A program made the position numbers and the translations under genes. Below, one piece after another: positions 29,044 through 35,757 of a stretch of DNA of 64,000 nucleotides. The stretch comes from Dehalococcoidia bacterium (lineage in GTDB: Bacteria > Chloroflexota > Dehalococcoidia > Plut-88900), in NCBI GenBank assembly GCA_965249275.1, contig CBDFLQ010000005.1, forward strand, positions 352,001 through 416,000. Reading direction: 5' to 3'. Numbering within the stretch: position 1 is the first letter of the stretch; every line of letters begins with the position of its first letter. The notes below the pieces were generated by a model that searched no databases, was not told where the DNA came from, and saw only the letters and a program-made list of their open reading frames with translations.

Positions 29044-29400
29044 CTAGTAGAAGATGGAACGGGTGGGGACTAGTCGCCATTGCACCGGGTCGGCTGCAAG
29101 GCGCAGGCCTTCAAGGGTGTAGGCCCCCAGGAGGGGTGGGGTGCCGTCTTCGCCGAATATCACCAATGAGACCTCACTGGCCCCGTCTATGGTGACCCAG
29201 ACCCGTCCCATCTCCAGCTCAACGATTCGACCGTCCGCCAGTTCGAATTCGGCTTTGCCGATTGATGCGACGCCCAACCGGCGCAACATACCGTATGGCA
29301 ACATGGTATAGGTTGCCCCGGTGTCCACCGTTGCCTCGATGTCCAGCACCTCTCCGCCGTCCATGCTGGTAATTTGTAACGGCGAGCTAAAAACTCCCAT
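29044..29400 (-). CDS. Clan AA retropepsin-like aspartyl protease
   Basis: ATVDTGATYT, LADGR, LLGAYTLEGL. Confidence 0.85.
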   Translation of the reverse strand: MGVFSSPLQITSMDGGEVLDIEATVDTGATYTMLPYGMLRRLGVASIGKAEFELADGRIVELEMGRVWVTIDGASEVSLVIFGEDGTPPLLGAYTLEGLRLAADPVQWRLVPTRSIFY

Positions 29401-29546
29401 ATTGGGAACCTCTTTCTAAGCTATGTCGCCTGGCTATGTCACCTGATGGCTGGAACTCAATCCAAACCTTACCAAAAGCTGCAGCAAGTTTGCCACACAT
29501 CTCAATCCCTGTGGTATTTTGAGCATGCCCAACGGCTCAACTGGAG

Positions 29547-30104
29547 ATGCTTGCCTTGAACATGACAAATGCCGACCAATCCTTTATCCGAAGGATGTAC
29601 ACCGCCGACAACCTACCTGTCTTGCAACGACTCCCCGACGCATCAGTCGACCTCATCTACCTGGACCCGCCCTTCAATTCCAACCGGGACTACGCTGCGC
29701 CTATAACGGTTAAGAACCCCAAGACCGGCAAGCGGGAAAAGCACCTGGCCGAGTTCAAGGACACTTGGACTTTCACTGATGACGACGCCGAGTGGTTATA
29801 TGTTATTAGGTCTGACTATCCCACCGTCTATGCAGTGATCGAGTCAGTCAAAACAGCCCACAGCTTCCGCATGGCGGGCTACTTGTGCATGATGGCTGTC
29901 CGGTTACTCGAAATGCAACGCATTCTCAAGCATAGCGGGGCGATATATCTACACTGCGATCCTACCGCATCTCACTATCTGAAACTGCTCATGGACACAG
30001 TATTCGGCCCGTCAAACTTCAAGGCTGACATTACTTGGAGGCGAACTAGCAGCCATAACGACGTAAGGCGGAATTACGGTGCATTGGGAGACAACTTATT
30101 CTTT
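29547..30104 (+). pseudogene. 5' fragment of a DNA methyltransferase-HNH gene interrupted by the IS1595 element
   Basis: VDLIYLDPPFNS, IYLHCDPTASHYLK; joins in frame to 33913 when the element and one TSD are removed (DNLFF|YTKSTNF...MPYSKEH). Confidence 0.9.
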
Positions 30105-30152
30105 GGGAATTATATACAATAAGGCATCAGGAATTGGCCTGATAAACCATAC

Positions 30153-30554
30153 CTATCGTGGACGACGGCCCAACGTCGAGGTTGTGTGACCTGTTGCCGT
30201 GTTATTTTCCGCCGACCACTCCCAATTTCGGGTCAACTCTTTCAGCCATTGGGCACCTTCGGCAGCATCAAAATCACTCGCACCGCAATCGGGCCAATTG
30301 GGGCGACCAGAATAGTTCATCTTCACTCCCTGCGCCGATGCAATGAACCAGACCGAATCAGCGTCTGTTCGCTCCTTAGAATTATCACGACCCCATTCAA
30401 CGTACATTGAAAAGGGAGACACATTTACATTCGTCGGCCAAACAAAATCGTTCGGAAGATGCTCCAACAGCGCCTCCAGCGCCTGCGTCATCTGATGCAT
30501 GCTGTCTACCACCCCGTACATGGACCCGCATCCCGAAGAACCTTCAATCGTCAT
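30153..30554 (-). CDS. Hypothetical protein (transposon cargo)
   Basis: 133-aa ORF with AAGGAG RBS upstream of ATG; no recognised motif. Confidence 0.6.
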   Translation of the reverse strand: MTIEGSSGCGSMYGVVDSMHQMTQALEALLEHLPNDFVWPTNVNVSPFSMYVEWGRDNSKERTDADSVWFIASAQGVKMNYSGRPNWPDCGASDFDAAEGAQWLKELTRNWEWSAENNTATGHTTSTLGRRPR

Positions 30555-30658
30555 AATACTCCTTGCTTACGAACATCTTAGCTATCCAACTGTCTCTTTT
30601 TCCCGCGTCTCGCCGTAGGTCTTTACTACTCTCTCGGGGTTTGAGAACGTGGGTTGGT

Positions 30659-30747
30659 GGGTAAGTGCCGGAACCGGCAGACGGGCTATCCTGCCAAGAT
30701 AGTGGCCCTTCGTGGTCGTAGGGGTTCGATCCCCCTCTTACCCACCA
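30659..30747 (+). tRNA. Class II tRNA with Leu-type body and GCC (Gly) anticodon
   Basis: Acceptor GGGTAAG/CTTACCC + A73 + CCA; D arm CCG-GAACCGGCAGA-CGG; anticodon arm CTATC-CTGCCAA-GATAG; long variable arm; T arm AGGGG-TTCGATC-CCCCT. Confidence 0.9.
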
Positions 30748-30757
30748 ACCCCTCTAA

Positions 30758-30985
30758 TTATCCTCGAGGCGGGAAGGGATCGTTGCCGTAGCTGTCCTTC
30801 TCCCTGATCTTCCCGTCCTTGCCATGTAAGTAATACTCGGCGTCATGGTTTCGAGCAACCTGCCGGCCGTAAGAATCTGCCTCGGCCTGGGTATCGAAGG
30901 ACTTCGTAATCCTCGATGCTCCGCCCTTCCGCACAGCCCACTTATCCCCATAGGGAACGGTGTGTTGAGTTTCTTTGCGTGCCAT
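30758..30985 (-). CDS. DUF2188-family small protein
   Basis: QHTVPYGDKWAVRKGGASRIT..FDTQAEA...LHGKDGKIREKDSYGNDPFPPRG. Confidence 0.8.
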   Translation of the reverse strand: MARKETQHTVPYGDKWAVRKGGASRITKSFDTQAEADSYGRQVARNHDAEYYLHGKDGKIREKDSYGNDPFPPRG

Positions 30986-31002
30986 TACATTACCTCTGTT
31001 AT

Positions 31003-31152
31003 CTAAGGTGCTACCTCTTTATGGTCCTTCCCGTCGTCCTGCTCCTCACCCTTCTTGGGATTCGGCCCCTTCACCACCGCCCGTAGCACATCCTCAAACG
31101 TGTCGGGTATGTGGAGCCTCTCAAACGGGCTTCTGTCTTCGCTCTTTTTCAT
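31003..31152 (-). CDS. Small hypothetical protein (LHIPDTFEDVLRAVVK type)
   Basis: 49-aa ORF co-oriented with the transposase and DUF2188 gene. Confidence 0.5.
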   Translation of the reverse strand: MKKSEDRSPFERLHIPDTFEDVLRAVVKGPNPKKGEEQDDGKDHKEVAP

Positions 31153-31322
31153 CTTATATAGATTATACCCCCACTTGCCTGAGATTGAAACACCTGTGCG
31201 GTATGGCACTATAGAAACTAAGGGGGGGTAAGTAGACGGTAGACTTTACCCTCCCTACCTGTTGATAATTCCAATATAGAAGAAAGCCTTGGAGGTTAAT
31301 CACATCTCCAAGACTCTCATCA

Positions 31323-31411
31323 GCCGTAGTGGTGGAACTGGTAGACACGCCCGGCTTGCACCCGGGTGGACTAATCGTCCGTGCAGGGTTCGAATCCCGC
31401 CTACGGCACCA
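31323..31411 (+). tRNA. Class II tRNA with Leu-type body and TGC (Ala) anticodon
   Basis: Acceptor GCCGTAG/CTACGGC + A73 + CCA; Leu-like GTGGTGGAACTGGTAGACACGC; anticodon arm CCCGG-CTTGCAC-CCGGG; variable arm GGAC-TAATC-GTCC; T arm with one bulged A; no G3:U70. Confidence 0.9.
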
Positions 31412-31501
31412 CTCTTCTTGATCCCTATTTTCATTATAAACACCTCTTCACCTTCCTGTAAATTCGTTGACGTCTACCCCCTGTGGGTGTACCTTGTCCC
31501 C

Positions 31502-31592
31502 GCTTAGGTAGTCTACCCGTACGCTGAACGTTATTTGGGCATGGGGCCGCTCATGCCCCCTTGCCAGTGAAACGGGCCAGGACTGCCTAAGC
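31502..31592 (+). ncRNA. Putative long-hairpin RNA or leader behind its own promoter
   Basis: GCTTAGGTAGTC/GACTGCCTAAGC, CCCGT/ACGGG and GGGCATG/CATGCCC nested stems; TTGACG-17nt-TACCTT at ~31468-31496. Confidence 0.45.
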
Positions 31593-31627
31593 AACGGTCA
31601 CCAGCCTAGCTGCAAGGGGGTTCCAAT

Positions 31628-32173
31628 ATGACAAAAAGCCGAATCGGGTTTTGGCTACTCATCTCTCTAATCCCTATGGGATTACTCACCTTCCTCGGAT
31701 TCATCATAAGCATTGTTCTATTCATAGGGTCCAGTAGTGATGAACCAGAGGGAGCCGAAATAGCATGTACCTTTGTCTTCTTTGCTTCGCTCTTCTACTG
31801 GTGGGGTGCTCTCTTCACCGGCATCGGATTGAAGATATTGTCCAGGCGGGAAAATCAGCAGATGTTTGCTCAAGCTCAGCGATACGCCGAGGTACACGGA
31901 TGGCAACCCATCTCGCAGTCCGCATGGAGAGCACTTAAAGCAGACAGAGCTTCCCTTGCTGTAAGTCGAAGCATTCAGGGGACGATGTATACCCTCACTA
32001 TCGCATCAGGAGTGAACACCACCACTGTCACTAACTTCGCTACACCTCTATGGGCACTACAATTTGGTGACTGGTTATGGGAGAGAACGGGGGGCGAAAA
32101 CATCACCCCAGAGACAGCACAGGCTCAACGGCAAGAATGGTCTCAGAACTTGGCAATCATTCCCACCGTCTAG
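31628..32173 (+). CDS. Hypothetical membrane protein (two N-terminal TM helices; transposon cargo)
   Basis: 181-aa ORF with two hydrophobic segments and AAGGGGG RBS. Confidence 0.7.
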   Translation: MTKSRIGFWLLISLIPMGLLTFLGFIISIVLFIGSSSDEPEGAEIACTFVFFASLFYWWGALFTGIGLKILSRRENQQMFAQAQRYAEVHGWQPISQSAWRALKADRASLAVSRSIQGTMYTLTIASGVNTTTVTNFATPLWALQFGDWLWERTGGENITPETAQAQRQEWSQNLAIIPTV

Positions 32174-32188
32174 CCATCCATACGGTAA

Positions 32189-33106
32189 CTACACATTGGT
32201 AATTAAGTCGTCGTAGGTTAGTCGCTTGCCGTGCGTTCCCTTGATCAACCTCTTCATCTGGTCAAGGGTATCCATGGGCCGGTCGTTGTGCCGCCCAGCG
32301 AACTCGGTGGCATAGCGGCTCAAGTGTTTGGGAGAGACATGGTGGTAAGTACCCATAATCCCCCGCTTGAGCATGGCCCAGTGGCTCTCGATGCTGTTGG
32401 TCGTAACCTCACCCCTAACGTACTCCCCGGTGGCATGATCAACCGCTTCGTGCTTCAAGGGAATACCCCTGTAGGAGAGGTGTCCATCACTGTGCAAGGT
32501 AGCGTCCGGTTCAACGTTGTCGAGAACGAATCCTTGGAGAATGGGTTTCTTCGTAGAGGGAAGCACCTCGGCCTTGATCTGATTAGTTGGCTTATCCAAG
32601 AGCCCCGCCACGATGGCCTTACCTTTAGGCCCTCTCCCCATGCCTCTCCACTTCCCGCCAACGTAGGTCTCATCCACCTCGACAGGCCCTCCGAAGAGTC
32701 CCTGCTCTGACTCCCACGCCTTCCGTATCCTGTGCGCCAAGTGCCAAGCTGATTTTTGGGTAATGTTGAGGTCCCGATGCAATTTCATCGAGGAAACGCC
32801 CTTGAGGTTCGTGGTCATGAGGTAAATGGCGATACCCCACTTGGAGAGAGGAAGGTTGGAACCGTGCATGACGGTGCCAGTTTTGACGGAAAATTCCAGC
32901 TGGCAGTAGGTGCAGTGTAAGGGCTTTACCTTGCGGTTGGGGCGACGGGTGATCTCCATGCCGCCACAGCGGGGGCATGATATACCGCTGGGCCAACGAG
33001 ACTCGATGAATAACTGCTCAGCCTTTTCCTCGGTGGAGAATAATTTAGTGACCTCCAGAAGGGACAAACCCTTCCGATAATGCTTACCTGGGGCGTTCCG
33101 TGCCAT
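32189..33106 (-). CDS. IS1595-family transposase
   Basis: Zn ribbon CPRC...CTYC, KGVSSMKLHRDL, VEVDETYVGG, HSDG, TNSIESHW, HLSRY; start placed at MARNAPG after a TTTACA-17nt-TATAAT promoter. Confidence 0.95.
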   Translation of the reverse strand: MARNAPGKHYRKGLSLLEVTKLFSTEEKAEQLFIESRWPSGISCPRCGGMEITRRPNRKVKPLHCTYCQLEFSVKTGTVMHGSNLPLSKWGIAIYLMTTNLKGVSSMKLHRDLNITQKSAWHLAHRIRKAWESEQGLFGGPVEVDETYVGGKWRGMGRGPKGKAIVAGLLDKPTNQIKAEVLPSTKKPILQGFVLDNVEPDATLHSDGHLSYRGIPLKHEAVDHATGEYVRGEVTTNSIESHWAMLKRGIMGTYHHVSPKHLSRYATEFAGRHNDRPMDTLDQMKRLIKGTHGKRLTYDDLITNV

Positions 33107-33220
33107 GCGCTGATCTCCTACTTCGGCTATCCTTGTTGACATAACTATTATAACACATCTCCTAATTTGTGTAAACAATGCCCAAGCAATGGAGAAAACA
33201 TGGAAAATACTGCTAAAACT

Positions 33221-33250
33221 TGGACACAATTTCAGTGGAAATAGTATCAT
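33221..33250 (+). promoter_or_regulatory. Putative sigma70 promoter for the structured-RNA array
   Basis: TGGACA-18nt-TATCAT immediately upstream of the first structured unit, divergent from the transposase promoter. Confidence 0.5.
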
Positions 33251-33256
33251 ACGGAG

Positions 33257-33410
33257 GGCAGGGTACGCAAGGAATTTATGGCACCAGGAGGCACCAATGG
33301 TCCCCTATCGGGGAATGAAACTCAGCCGGCTCCACTTTGAATAGACGTTCTGCAAAAACGTCGTGGGGTTGGCTACAAGAAGGACATTTTAGACCCTTGC
33401 ATACCCTGCC
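33257..33410 (+). ncRNA. Structured RNA unit 1, with an anticodon-like stem-loop (GCA)
   Basis: Closing stem GGCAGGGTAcGCAAGG/CCTTGCaTACCCTGCC; inner AGCCGGCTCCAC/GTGGGGTTGGCT; hairpin GACGTT-CTGCAAA-AACGTC. Confidence 0.6.
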
Positions 33411-33419
33411 AATACAACG

Positions 33420-33516
33420 TGAGAGGACATGCCTGTTGGTGCAGGCCAGAATTTGCCAAACTCTTGAGAACGTTGGCATATCCAACGTTGCGGTTCGATT
33501 CCGATCCTCTCCGCCA
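33420..33516 (+). tRNA. Irregular (9/3-like, allo-tRNA-like) tRNA with GCC anticodon and G73
   Basis: GAGAGGA/TCCTCTC acceptor core ending GCCA; D arm GCCTG-TTGGTG-CAGGC; AGAAT-TTGCCAA-ACTCT; long extra arm AACGTTGG/CCAACGTT; 3-bp T stem CGG-TTCGATT-CCG. Confidence 0.7.
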
Positions 33517-33542
33517 TCAAATAATTTGTATTATCATATAGA

Positions 33543-33660
33543 TGAGGGGAGTAGTGGTAATCCGGTAGACTCTCGATGTTCCCAACATCGGCATTGCTTA
33601 GGTAGTGTGTGTCAGACGCTGGCACAGAGTTTTTACAGAGGAACCATCTACTCTCCTTCA
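33543..33660 (+). ncRNA. tRNA-like unit with CCC anticodon loop and no canonical T arm
   Basis: TGAGGGGAGTAGTGGT/ACCATCTACTCTCCTTCA stem; Leu-like GGTAGAC; CGATG-TTCCCAA-CATCG; extra arms GCATTGC/GTAGTGT and GTGTCAG/CTGGCAC. Confidence 0.55.
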
Positions 33661-33673
33661 AGATTATACATGT

Positions 33674-33743
33674 CGCAGTCCCTGGCTGTGTGACAGGAAC
33701 GCCTTGGTACCAGCGTTGGGCTTTCAACCTGACTGCGCCTCCA
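33674..33743 (+). ncRNA. Small cloverleaf-like unit
   Basis: CGCAGTC/GACTGCG acceptor-like stem followed by CCTCCA; arms CCTG/CAGG, AACGC/GCGTT and GGG-CTTTCAA-CCT. Confidence 0.4.
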
Positions 33744-33760
33744 TATCTCCTCAATTTGAA

Positions 33761-33874
33761 TGGGAAACAAGATGGACGACCAGACATATGTCACTGTTGG
33801 AGGTTTGGCAAGACCTCCTTGATGAATTAGCGCTCGTGTTCAGCGTCGCTTCATATCTGGTCGTCCATCTCCCA
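33761..33874 (+). ncRNA. Structured RNA unit with long closing stem and TTGGCAA loop
   Basis: AGATGGACGACCAGA/TCTGGTCGTCCATCT 15-bp stem ending CCCA; inner GGAGGT-TTGGCAAG-ACCTCC. Confidence 0.5.
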
Positions 33875-33912
33875 CTGCTTGATGCCTTATTGTATATAAT
33901 TCCCTATTCTTT

Positions 33913-34800
33913 TATACGAAGAGCACTAATTTCATATTTAATACTCAATACATGCCTTACTCCAAAGAGCACATGGAGAAATTTTACTCCCACATCGATA
34001 AAGACGGCAGAAAGTACAGCACTGACAATTTGAGAAGCCCTGCACCCAGACCTAATTTGACTTACGAGTACAAGGGATACAAACCTCACCCCAATGGGTG
34101 GACAGTGTCACTTGAGAGAATGAAGCGACTCGACGCAGAGGGGCGTCTTCATTTTCCGAAAAAGAAGGACGGTCGAATCCGCATAAAGAAATTCCTTGAT
34201 GAAATGCCCGGCGTGCCTATGGGCAATATATGGGATGACATCAGACCTATCTCATCTCACTCTGAAGAACGCCTAGGCTACCCTACCCAGAAACCCTTGG
34301 CCCTGCTAGAACGCGTAATTAGGGCATCCACCAACGAGGGCGATCTAGTTTTGGACCCCTTTGCGGGTTGCGCCACGGCCTGTGTCGCAGCGGAGAAACT
34401 GAAACGGCAGTGGATCGGCATTGACGTGAGCGACCTTGCAGTCAAGCACGTCTTGGAGCGCATCCAGGATGGTTACAACCAGGGCGACTTCCCGGATATC
34501 CTTGAAACAGGGTTCCATCCCGACAAGGTGGATCACTTAGTTATCAGTGGGGAGGCACGCGCCCCGCGCTACCAAGACCGCAAGCCGGAGCTATACGTAC
34601 ACCAGAACGGCAGGTGTGCGGGCTGCCACCTCGAACTCCCGGAGCGCCTTCTGGCCGTGGACCATATTAAGCCGAGATCCAAGGGGGGCGCCGACGCTAT
34701 CGAAAACCTTCAACTCCTCTGCACTGACTGCAACTCCCGCAAAGGCAACCGGGACATGAAATACCTGTTGGAGTCCCTAAAGAGGGACGGAATAATTTAG
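33913..34800 (+). pseudogene. 3' fragment of the DNA methyltransferase with C-terminal HNH nuclease domain
   Basis: GYPTQKPLALLERVI, VLDPFAGCAT (motif I), CAGC...VDHIKPRSKGG...NLQLLCTDCNSRKG; internal ATG at 33952. Confidence 0.9.
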
Positions 34801-34818
34801 AGGCGAGGGCTTTCCAAT

Positions 34819-35757
34819 ATGACCATAGACATTCACAACCACATCTGGACCCGGGAGTATCTTTCCGACCACTGGTGGGATATTTACGCAAACTTTTTCT
34901 CTAGCTATATCACCGACTCCCCATTCTCGGGGACGCCGGAGGAGATAGACCGGAACCTGTTTGCCAAATGCTTTGATCCCGACGGCTCGGAGTGCATAGT
35001 GGAGATGGATGAGGCGGGGATAGACGTGGCCGTGGTCACGGCCATCGACGGGTCATGCGCGCTGGGGGAGGCGCCCAAGTCGATAGAGGAGCAGAACCGG
35101 GAGCTCGCCGACATCTGCGCCGCCTACCCGGAACGCTACATCTTCTTCTCGTGCATCGACCCACGGGCCCCGGGGGCGCTGGAGTTCGTCGAGCGCTCCG
35201 TCGAGGAGTGGAATGCCAAGGGATTCAAGTTTCACCCCAACATGAGTGGGCTGTATCCGTGGCACGAGGCGGCATACCCGATCTACGAACGGCTCCAGGC
35301 TCTCGGGCTTCCCGTCTTGTTTCACACGGGCCAGATGTTCGAGCCTCTCGATCCCAAGTTCAGCCAGCCAAAGGAGCTCATCCAAGTCCTCACCGACTTT
35401 CCGGATTTGAAAGTCATTGCCGCTCATCTCGGCATTGCGTCATGGCGGGAGTTGATTGAAGTGGCGCGGGACAGGCCGAACCTGGTGACAGACTTCTCGG
35501 CGTTCCAGCATGAGGCGGCCAACAACTATGGGAGGTTCTGCATCGTGCTCAGACGGGTGATCGATGGCCTGGGCGTCGATCGCGTCCTATTCGGGTGCGA
35601 CGGCCCAGTGTGGACTCGATGGTATTCCCGCAAGTGGTGGGTAGACCTTGTGAGAAACATGCCTGACAACCCCACGGAGAAGGCGTCGTTTACTCATGAA
35701 GAGGTCGAGGCCATGCTTCACGGCAACGCGGTTCGGGTGTTGGGGCTCGGGGCCTGA
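34819..35757 (+). CDS. Amidohydrolase family 2 protein
   Basis: IDIHNH, GFKFHP, PVLFHTG, IAAHLG, RVLFGCDGP. Confidence 0.9.
   Translation: MTIDIHNHIWTREYLSDHWWDIYANFFSSYITDSPFSGTPEEIDRNLFAKCFDPDGSECIVEMDEAGIDVAVVTAIDGSCALGEAPKSIEEQNRELADICAAYPERYIFFSCIDPRAPGALEFVERSVEEWNAKGFKFHPNMSGLYPWHEAAYPIYERLQALGLPVLFHTGQMFEPLDPKFSQPKELIQVLTDFPDLKVIAAHLGIASWRELIEVARDRPNLVTDFSAFQHEAANNYGRFCIVLRRVIDGLGVDRVLFGCDGPVWTRWYSRKWWVDLVRNMPDNPTEKASFTHEEVEAMLHGNAVRVLGLGA

Follow-up and report, generated by a model that had tools for sequence, protein, structure and literature searches.

In this article we describe a 64,000-nucleotide stretch of the genome of a Dehalococcoidia bacterium (assembly GCA_965249275.1, contig CBDFLQ010000005.1, positions 352,001 to 416,000 of the forward strand), called here the window, in whose numbering all coordinates are given, and within it an allo-tRNA-like candidate gene, T3, which lies inside a transposon of the IS1595 family. 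T3 is a member of a known, unusual tRNA family, and the notable part of the locus is its transposon context. Considering all the evidence together, we regard T3 as a diverged, weak or inactive copy of an 8/4 allo-tRNA moved as cargo of the IS1595 element, a reading to which we would assign a probability of roughly 0.6. Mukai et al. (PMC5389517) defined allo-tRNAs by an acceptor branch of 12 bp, divided 8/4 or 9/3, together with a long extra arm and a long D stem closed by a tetraloop; most of them possess G73 or U73, and their anticodons are non-serine.

The acceptor helix of T3 contains seven unbroken pairs both in the sequence and in the minimum free energy (MFE) fold (G33421-A33427 with U33505-C33511), flanked by unpaired positions on its two sides, U33420 opposite C33512 and C33428 opposite A33504. 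The D stem, preceded by a linker of 3 nt, is formed by six pairs (GCCUGU/GCAGGC, the last one being U-G) and closed by the tetraloop UGGU; the extra arm has 8 bp and a 5-nt loop, and the T hairpin is built of a 3-bp CGG/CCG stem with the loop UUCGAUU. The GCC anticodon is centred in the 7-nt loop UUGCCAA, where both U33 and A37 are present, and the 3' end is G33513 (G73) followed by an encoded CCA. Two mismatches interrupt the stems: A-C at the fourth pair of the anticodon stem, which is not formed in the MFE fold, and G-A at the first pair of the T stem, the other three pairs of which are Watson-Crick. The z-score of the MFE fold was between -2.1 and -3.0. The original prediction, made from the sequence alone, had already described the 3-bp T stem with its TTCGATT loop, the 8-bp extra arm, the GCCA end and a nine-position acceptor with seven intact central pairs and the outer two unpaired, and all of these were recovered in the sequence and the fold; it had given the D stem as 5 bp, where six pairs and a 4-nt loop were found instead, and the A-C mismatch of the anticodon stem was absent from it.

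T3 was not called by ARAGORN, and among the Rfam families it matched only tRNA-Sec, with 34.6 bits, under the cut-off of 47. Since the ordinary tRNA-Ser genes of the host reach 44-48 bits on the same model, this match alone means only that T3 is a long-arm tRNA. The two open reading frames (ORFs) overlapping T3 (33337-33693 on the plus and 33389-33787 on the minus strand) were treated as non-genes, since they belong to no family and showed no protein-level conservation beyond one 65-nt patch.

The proposed relationship of T3, with its GCC anticodon, G73 and long extra arm, to allo-tRNAs was borne out by two covariance models from which T3 itself was left out. Two long tRNAs with GCG and GAU anticodons (L034 and L037; L-numbers denote loci from other genomes compared with the window), found at loci of relatives of the transposase in same-class genomes, have 3' halves nearly identical to that of T3. 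The model R1, built from these two alone with an 8/4 structure, recognized 33420-33513 at 43.9 bits (E 9.7e-7); the sole other row in the window was an 11-bit match with an E-value of 3, and T3 was the sole match at E <= 0.001 in the 2.9-Mb host genome. When 185,579 species genomes were scanned with an exact pattern, 108 stretches were returned; 80 of these were made into loci, which together with the earlier loci contained 90 R1 matches representing 82 distinct sequences. Because the T arm and part of the 3' acceptor strand were prescribed by the pattern, and because the alignment had been fitted to the model, the conservation of those columns is partly by construction; the 5' strands were free. 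The second model, R2, was built from 85 relatives and scored T3 at 47.8 bits, the four host tRNA-Ser genes at 29.6-37.0 bits, two true tRNA-Sec genes from other genomes at 42.9 and 51.4 bits, and the two other tRNAs of the same element, T1 and T2, at 22.4 and 14.6 bits.

Judged by these scores, T3 clearly has the allo/Sec type of body. The score alone being insufficient, its placement among the allo-tRNAs in particular follows from the sequence, the anticodon GCC and the genomic surroundings. Its T-arm and D-arm sequences match Dehalococcoidia allo-tRNAs, and the UUGCGGUUCGAUUCCG stretch together with the D arm matches those which travel aboard sister transposons; the closest relatives are 59-63% identical. 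A narrower exact pattern, consisting of the D arm and the T arm, returned three stretches from metagenomes (two intact allo-tRNAs and one weak match) and no close relative of T3 among them.

Over the 82 distinct family sequences 94.1% of the cells of the 8/4 fold are paired, 21 of the 31 pairs show changes on both sides, and this pairing was reached by none of 500 shuffles, nor did any slid register come near it. As read from this alignment, the family register of T3 is 8/4, and not the 9/3 architecture proposed earlier: the relatives are 8/4, and only seven of the nine positions of a 9-bp acceptor would pair. In the 8/4 alignment three pairs of T3 are non-standard, namely 1:72 (U-C), the fourth of the anticodon stem (A-C) and the first of the T stem (G-A), the last of which is standard in 80 of the 82 sequences. 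Pair 1:72 is G-C likewise in 80 of the 82, the exceptions being T3 and L062, a gene from a same-family genome, and the diverged L206 shows the same 1:72 pattern. Position 1 is preceded by G in each of these three genes, whereas only six of the 80 members starting with G have G at -1, and therefore a G33419-C33512 pair followed by one bulged nucleotide is the better description; the nucleotide inserted after G1 is U, A and U in T3, L062 and L206, respectively. When 33419-33516 was folded, G33419 indeed paired with C33512 and U33420 was bulged out, giving eight acceptor pairs. Thus the true start of T3 is probably 33419, with an extra U after G1, and what had been taken for a terminal mismatch at position 1 is better read as this insertion.

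T3 is one of the weakest members of its family. Its score ranks 87th of the 90 R1 matches, and three or more non-standard stem pairs, the number found in T3 being three, occur in only 8 of the 90 (the habitual G-A at the end of the D stem is not counted). The intact relative L175 forms a perfect 8/4 cloverleaf of -42.1 kcal/mol with a z-score of -3.9, and the other bulged genes, L062 and L206, fold poorly (z -1.8 and -0.2). The A-C mismatch, the G-A mismatch and the extra nucleotide together suggest that T3 is most likely a weak or inactive copy which is still moved by the transposon, and we consider a weak or inactive T3 likelier than an active one.

The transposon unit is 3,800 bp long (30105-33904), and its borders and genes are collected in Table 1. 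Its transposase contains the domains DDE_Tnp_IS1595 (PF12762, 2.3e-30) and Zn_ribbon_IS1595 (PF12760, 4e-8) and reaches 170.3 bits against NCBIfam NF033547, the cut-off of which is 75. The listed ORF is about 45 N-terminal residues longer than all of its relatives, which align from residue 47 on, and this extension contains a strong promoter-like site (33175-33147, matching at 11 of 12 positions and extended by TG); because of these two observations the real start of the transposase is probably near 33110. The interval from the transposase start to T3 contains a 16-nt inverted repeat (33257-33272 and 33395-33410, 94% complementary, separated by 122 nt), and between T3 and the right end there is a 65-nt patch (33680-33744) which is 88% identical to a same-genus site without a nearby transposase.

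The element is inserted into a gene for an N6/N4 DNA methylase with an HNH domain, split by it into two halves. The N-terminal half is 45% identical to residues 1-182 of an intact homolog and its last codon is completed at 30104; removal of the element and of one copy of the target duplication leaves the two halves in frame and rebuilds across the junction a motif which is continuous in the intact homolog. The insertion was clean and probably recent. An outer transposon around the methylase gene was also sought, and the terminus motif occurred there at chance level (12 matches against 7.0 expected). The same type of methylase-HNH gene, 41-45% identical, is found as cargo beside the allo-tRNA of a sister transposon (L175:2501-3751). 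In the contigs of four DNA runs no clean empty site was found over 29400-34900. Contigs of these runs join 30117 to 33892 directly or through a 15-nt palindromic filler, with sides of only about 21 nt, so that the first 13-17 nt of the left end meet the last nucleotides of the right end; such joints look like a miniature element made of the ends only, or a footprint, and may stem from other loci or organisms.

Sister elements repeat this context. Transposase matches at E <= 1e-20 were present in 84 of the 301 same-class genomes sampled (the host and one unpublished genome included, the latter being used for no other result), and 40 loci with 44-60% identical transposases were examined with 4-kb flanks. 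In 24 of the 40 the transposase is bracketed by inverted GGGAATTATATAC termini with at most two mismatches, as in the window, and seven of these 24 bracketed elements enclose a tRNA-like gene: allo-tRNAs in L175, L178, L199 and L201, a leucine-type tRNA with the anticodon CUC in L188, a 76-nt tRNA-Ala GGC in L184 and a 100-nt serine-type tRNA in L182. With R2, scores of at least 40 bits were obtained at five of the 40 loci, that is the four elements with allo-tRNAs and L206, where the copy is degenerate. A further such element, with an allo-tRNA GAG, is contained in L104, a named Dehalococcoidia record of a metagenome-assembled genome (MAG). Perfect 8-bp target duplications in AT-rich targets were found in all eight sister elements checked. 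The elements L178 and L199 belong to the same genome and share 2,776 bp at 100% identity, with unrelated flanks and different duplications, which means that the allo-tRNA was copied by transposition. The position and the orientation of the tRNA within the sister elements vary, and an IS1595-type transposase lies within 4 kb of only seven of the 80 allo-tRNA loci (two close homologs and five distant ones); this rare co-occurrence indicates that the tRNA is cargo and not part of the machinery.

Consequently, the connection between allo-tRNAs and IS1595 mobility, which the original prediction had put forward as a consequence of its reading, is real: T3 is enclosed by inverted repeats and a target duplication together with a transposase, and allo-tRNAs are carried by the sister elements as well, by one of them in two identical copies. 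Within one bacterial class, IS1595-type transposons repeatedly carry long-arm tRNAs with foreign anticodons and demonstrably copy them. The serine-type tRNA of L182 (L182:5065-5164, the same as L041:2565-2664) reaches 51 bits on the Rfam tRNA model, has an apparent 9-nt anticodon loop and was missed by ARAGORN. Canonical tRNA genes stand 50-1100 nt beyond the ends of five sister transposons (L195, L186, L179, L201 and L190), and such neighbours of transposon ends could be the route by which tRNA cargo is picked up.

Table 1. Features of the IS1595-family element and of its insertion site, in window coordinates
Feature	Position	Strand	Remarks
Split N6/N4 DNA methylase-HNH gene, N-terminal half	29547..30104	+	profile positions 1-94
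Target-site duplication TATTCTTT, left copy	30097..30104		8 bp
Left terminal inverted repeat	30105..30137	+	terminus GGGAATTATATAC; 33 nt, 91% complementary to 33872-33904
orf133	30153..30554	-	no family, no relatives found; may not be a gene
T1, leucine-type long-arm tRNA	30659..30747	+	GCC anticodon, A73, CCA; ARAGORN
DUF2188 protein	30758..30985	-	PF09954 4.8e-21; PADLOC defence candidate PDC-S16, 5e-32, full length
orf68, no known family	31003..31209	-	62% identity in L214 (same genus), beside an orf181 homolog
T2, leucine-type long-arm tRNA	31323..31411	+	UGC anticodon, A73, CCA; ARAGORN; Rfam tRNA 47.2 bits
orf181, no known family	31628..32173	+	52% and 49% identity in two same-genus genomes, beside transposase remnants
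IS1595-family transposase	32189..33250	-	ORF of 353 aa
T3, allo-tRNA-like gene	33419..33516	+	folds, covariance models (43.9 and 47.8 bits), G at -1
Right terminal inverted repeat	33872..33904	-	33 nt, pairs with 30105-30137
Target-site duplication TATTCTTT, right copy	33905..33912		8 bp
Split methylase-HNH gene, C-terminal half	33913..34800	+	profile positions 132-216 and HNH

The element carries two further tRNA genes with foreign anticodons. T1 is identical to the host tRNA-Leu UAG at 64 of 84 positions and matches the tRNA-Leu UAG genes of same-class genomes; T2 is identical to the host tRNA-Leu GAG at 66 of 83 positions, and its T stem has one mismatch and one bulge. The host itself possesses a canonical tRNA-Gly GCC, a tRNA-Ala UGC, five tRNA-Leu and four tRNA-Ser genes. 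Leucyl-tRNA synthetase (LeuRS) is generally regarded as blind to the anticodon, and because of this T1 and T2 are candidate miscoders, the former from Gly to Leu and the latter from Ala to Leu. Among the protein-coding cargo orf68 and orf181 were without a family in Pfam, NCBIfam and PADLOC; an atlas search with orf181 gave only unnamed clusters (best 0.80), and its single-sequence AlphaFold model (pLDDT 68.9) had no Foldseek match in the PDB at E <= 0.001. A 96-nt serine-type tRNA with G73, CCA and the leucine-codon anticodon UAA was observed at a transposon end in a same-genus genome (L214:6009-6104), where it adjoins homologs of orf68 and orf181 and a transposase remnant, in synteny with the T1 side of the element in the window.

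The reading of T3 as a weak or inactive copy has to be weighed against several facts. The G73-CCA is encoded in T3 as in all 12 host tRNAs compared, and CCA follows the gene in only two of the 82 distinct family members, yet T3 encodes it. The 6-bp D stem, the 8-bp extra arm and the seven acceptor pairs are perfect, and the anticodon loop is the same as in nine other allo-tRNA-GCC genes, which have no or one mismatch. A-C mismatches can be tolerated. The transposon looks young and active, so its cargo would not have been idle at this site for long. Furthermore, the acceptor sequences of T3, L062 and L206 differ and still pair; together with the shared insertion this means that the inserted nucleotide after G1 may be an inherited subfamily trait and not fresh damage. 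Finally, the covariance score does not separate T3 from true tRNA-Sec (42.9-51.4 bits). All of these weigh against our preferred reading.

Several of them serve an active T3, which we consider somewhat unlikely but the most serious of the alternatives. According to it T3 is processed to a 5' end at G33419 with U33420 bulged, charged with serine by the seryl-tRNA synthetase (SerRS) of the host and inserts serine at the glycine codons GGC and GGU, and as a part of the same proposal T3 would form, with T1 (Gly to Leu) and T2 (Ala to Leu), a mobile miscoding cassette. Whichever reading of T3 holds, a matured T3 would be expected to be charged by SerRS, for which G73 and the long extra arm are named as the identity elements and which does not read the anticodon (Mukai et al., PMC5389517); once charged with serine it would read GGC and GGU as serine. 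The presence of G73, the encoded CCA, the long extra arm and the intact UUGCCAA loop with U33 and A37 is consistent with an active T3, as is an acceptor helix kept by different sequences in three genes with the same insertion. CCA is encoded in all three tRNA genes of the element, in the manner of the 12 host tRNAs, the element is young, with its target gene open in both halves, and allo-tRNAs with leucine anticodons inserted serine in Escherichia coli, as reported in PMC5389517. Against these stand a score among the lowest of the family, three structural irregularities including one of the anticodon stem, a cloverleaf which is not the predicted MFE structure and the poor folding of L062 and L206, which share the insertion (z -1.8 and -0.2). 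Additionally, global miscoding of glycine as serine should be costly; growth arrest upon induction was seen by Mukai et al. (PMC5389517).

A broader version of this idea concerns the transposons themselves: the GGGAATTATATAC-ended IS1595 elements of Dehalococcoidia would be vehicles of functional anticodon-mismatched long-arm tRNAs, serine-type allo-tRNAs as well as leucine-type ones, and the element in the window would be a spreading three-tRNA miscoding cassette (Gly to Ser, Gly to Leu and Ala to Leu). We hold this proposal to be improbable as a whole. Within it, the inserted nucleotide of T3 would be a subfamily trait which tunes activity, and the cassette, jointly with the PDC-S16-like gene, might be retained as a device for addiction or abortive infection.

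It is very unlikely that T3 is transcribed for a non-translational purpose, as a regulatory or decoy tRNA-like RNA connected with the transposon or with the defence-candidate gene nearby, even though non-translational roles were proposed for inactive allo-tRNAs by Mukai et al. (PMC5389517). T3 lies between the transposase gene and the transposon end, divergently from the transposase, and the allo-tRNA of L175 is situated alike; the cargo includes the PADLOC PDC-S16 match, and promoter-like (33221-33250) and terminator-like (33608-33626) sites are found on the T3 strand. However, the promoter and terminator counts of the scan stood at the level of shuffled sequences, that is, at chance; the place and the orientation of allo-tRNAs relative to the transposase vary among other elements; and no allo-tRNA match was present at 35 of the 40 transposase loci, nor an IS1595-type transposase within 4 kb at 73 of the 80 allo-tRNA loci. 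This varied placement and rare co-occurrence indicate that genes of the T3 type are not a fixed part of the transposition machinery. That T3 is no allo-tRNA at all, rather a decayed host tRNA-Ser (7/5) or tRNA-Sec picked up by the transposon, is hardly credible: its acceptor strands GAGAGG/CCUCUCC and G73-CCA do equal those of the host tRNA-Ser GGA and CGA, its scores on R1 and R2 are equalled by true tRNA-Sec genes, and tRNA-Sec is its best Rfam family, but its D arm (a 6-bp stem with a tetraloop) is unlike those of the host tRNA-Ser genes, all four of which R2 places below it, its Rfam tRNA-Sec score of 34.6 lies under the cut-off of 47 and under the 44-48 bits of host tRNA-Ser, its anticodon is GCC and not UCA, selC was not detected in the host genome, and the UUGCGGUUCGAUUCCG stretch and the D arm match the Dehalococcoidia allo-tRNAs of sister transposons.

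Acidobacteriota MAGs account for most matches of the genome scan. Of the 80 loci listed, nine bear the name of Dehalococcoidia or Chloroflexota, and a single one that of Thermoleophilaceae. The nearest relatives of T3 and the sister transposons come from named Dehalococcoidia records and same-class genomes. As hosts of allo-tRNAs, only Clostridia, Proteobacteria and Acidobacteria are named in the passages considered of PMC5389517 and of a 2020 review (PMC7609411), and a limited literature search for allo-tRNAs in Chloroflexi, or for suppressor or mistranslating tRNAs in Dehalococcoidia, found nothing. Some odd members of the family were also observed. Three allo-tRNAs occur in named Dehalococcoidia MAG records (L112:3933-4026, L066:4000-4090 and L090:4000-4084): two of them are otherwise perfect 8/4 molecules with 8-nt anticodon loops, read by ARAGORN as four-base anticodons, and the third, with a CUA anticodon, looks like an amber suppressor. 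An allo-tRNA-like gene with 57.6 bits and three mismatches is present in a MAG of Thermoleophilaceae (Actinomycetota; L067:3941-4026), about 200 nt from a distant IS1595-type transposase.

Allo-tRNAs are among the few natural tRNAs in which the anticodon does not fit the amino acid of the body. The locus described here answers concretely how they can spread: it shows an allo-tRNA inside a transposon with clear borders. In the sister transposons the cargo consists of allo-tRNAs that are intact and of leucine-type tRNAs that have foreign anticodons, and one such element has just been copied within a genome. The family is thereby extended to Dehalococcoidia (Chloroflexota), a lineage not named in the parts of the same two papers considered here. 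Furthermore, a single type of vehicle bears copies that are intact, bulged or mismatched, which makes them a natural series for tests of function.

Compared with known systems, T3 stands closest to the (8/4) 'major' allo-tRNAs, of which examples with a GCC anticodon were already listed by Mukai et al. (2017, NAR; PMC5389517). It shares with them the long D stem with a tetraloop, the long extra arm, a discriminator base of the G73/U73 type, a non-serine anticodon and, probably, the 8-position acceptor strand and the 4-position T strand, and when the supplementary sequences of that work were compared with T3 by eye, the architecture and several sequence blocks agreed. It differs from them by the insertion after G1, the G-A of the T stem, the A-C of the anticodon stem, the 3-nt linker before the D stem and the encoded CCA; the published allo-tRNA-GCC rows which were compared have U73, whereas T3 has G73, and its host is a member of Dehalococcoidia and not of the Clostridia, Proteobacteria or Acidobacteria, the hosts named in the portions of the literature mentioned above. 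The (9/3) example of PMC5389517 which was compared resembles T3 in the 3-bp T stem, the UUCGAUU loop, the 6-bp D stem, the tetraloop and G73; a 9-bp acceptor in T3, however, would have to include U-C as its first pair and C-A as its ninth.

With bacterial tRNA-Sec (RF01852) T3 has in common the extended acceptor, the 6-bp D stem and tetraloop, the long extra arm and G73, and the covariance scores overlap, but the anticodon is GCC instead of UCA and the division of the acceptor branch is read as 8/4 against 8/5; with this anticodon and an Rfam score below the cut-off, T3 was rejected as a tRNA-Sec. The tRNA-ProA family, as presented in the part of PMC10404621 used for comparison, likewise consists of natural bacterial tRNA genes with a mismatch between the anticodon and the identity of the body, and differs from T3 both in its body type and in its identity; no connection with a transposon is mentioned in that part.

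A published parallel is offered by the allo-tRNA-UAU pseudogene of Edaphobacter strain C40 and other destabilised allo-tRNA-UAU species, where several base-pair disruptions and a link to a transposon-related gene are described, and an association of allo-tRNAs with transposable elements was proposed in the same source (PMC5389517). T3, in contrast, stands as a gene of its own between the defined inverted repeats of an IS1595 element with a target duplication, and its anticodon is GCC, not UAU.

It is known from the ISfinder literature that some members of the IS1595 family carry passenger genes. A limited literature search for tRNA cargo in IS1595 returned nothing. The element in the window resembles other members of this family in its DDE_Tnp_IS1595 and zinc-ribbon transposase, its inverted repeats and its 8-bp target duplication, and it is distinguished from them by its passengers, which are long-arm tRNA genes whose anticodons disagree with their bodies.

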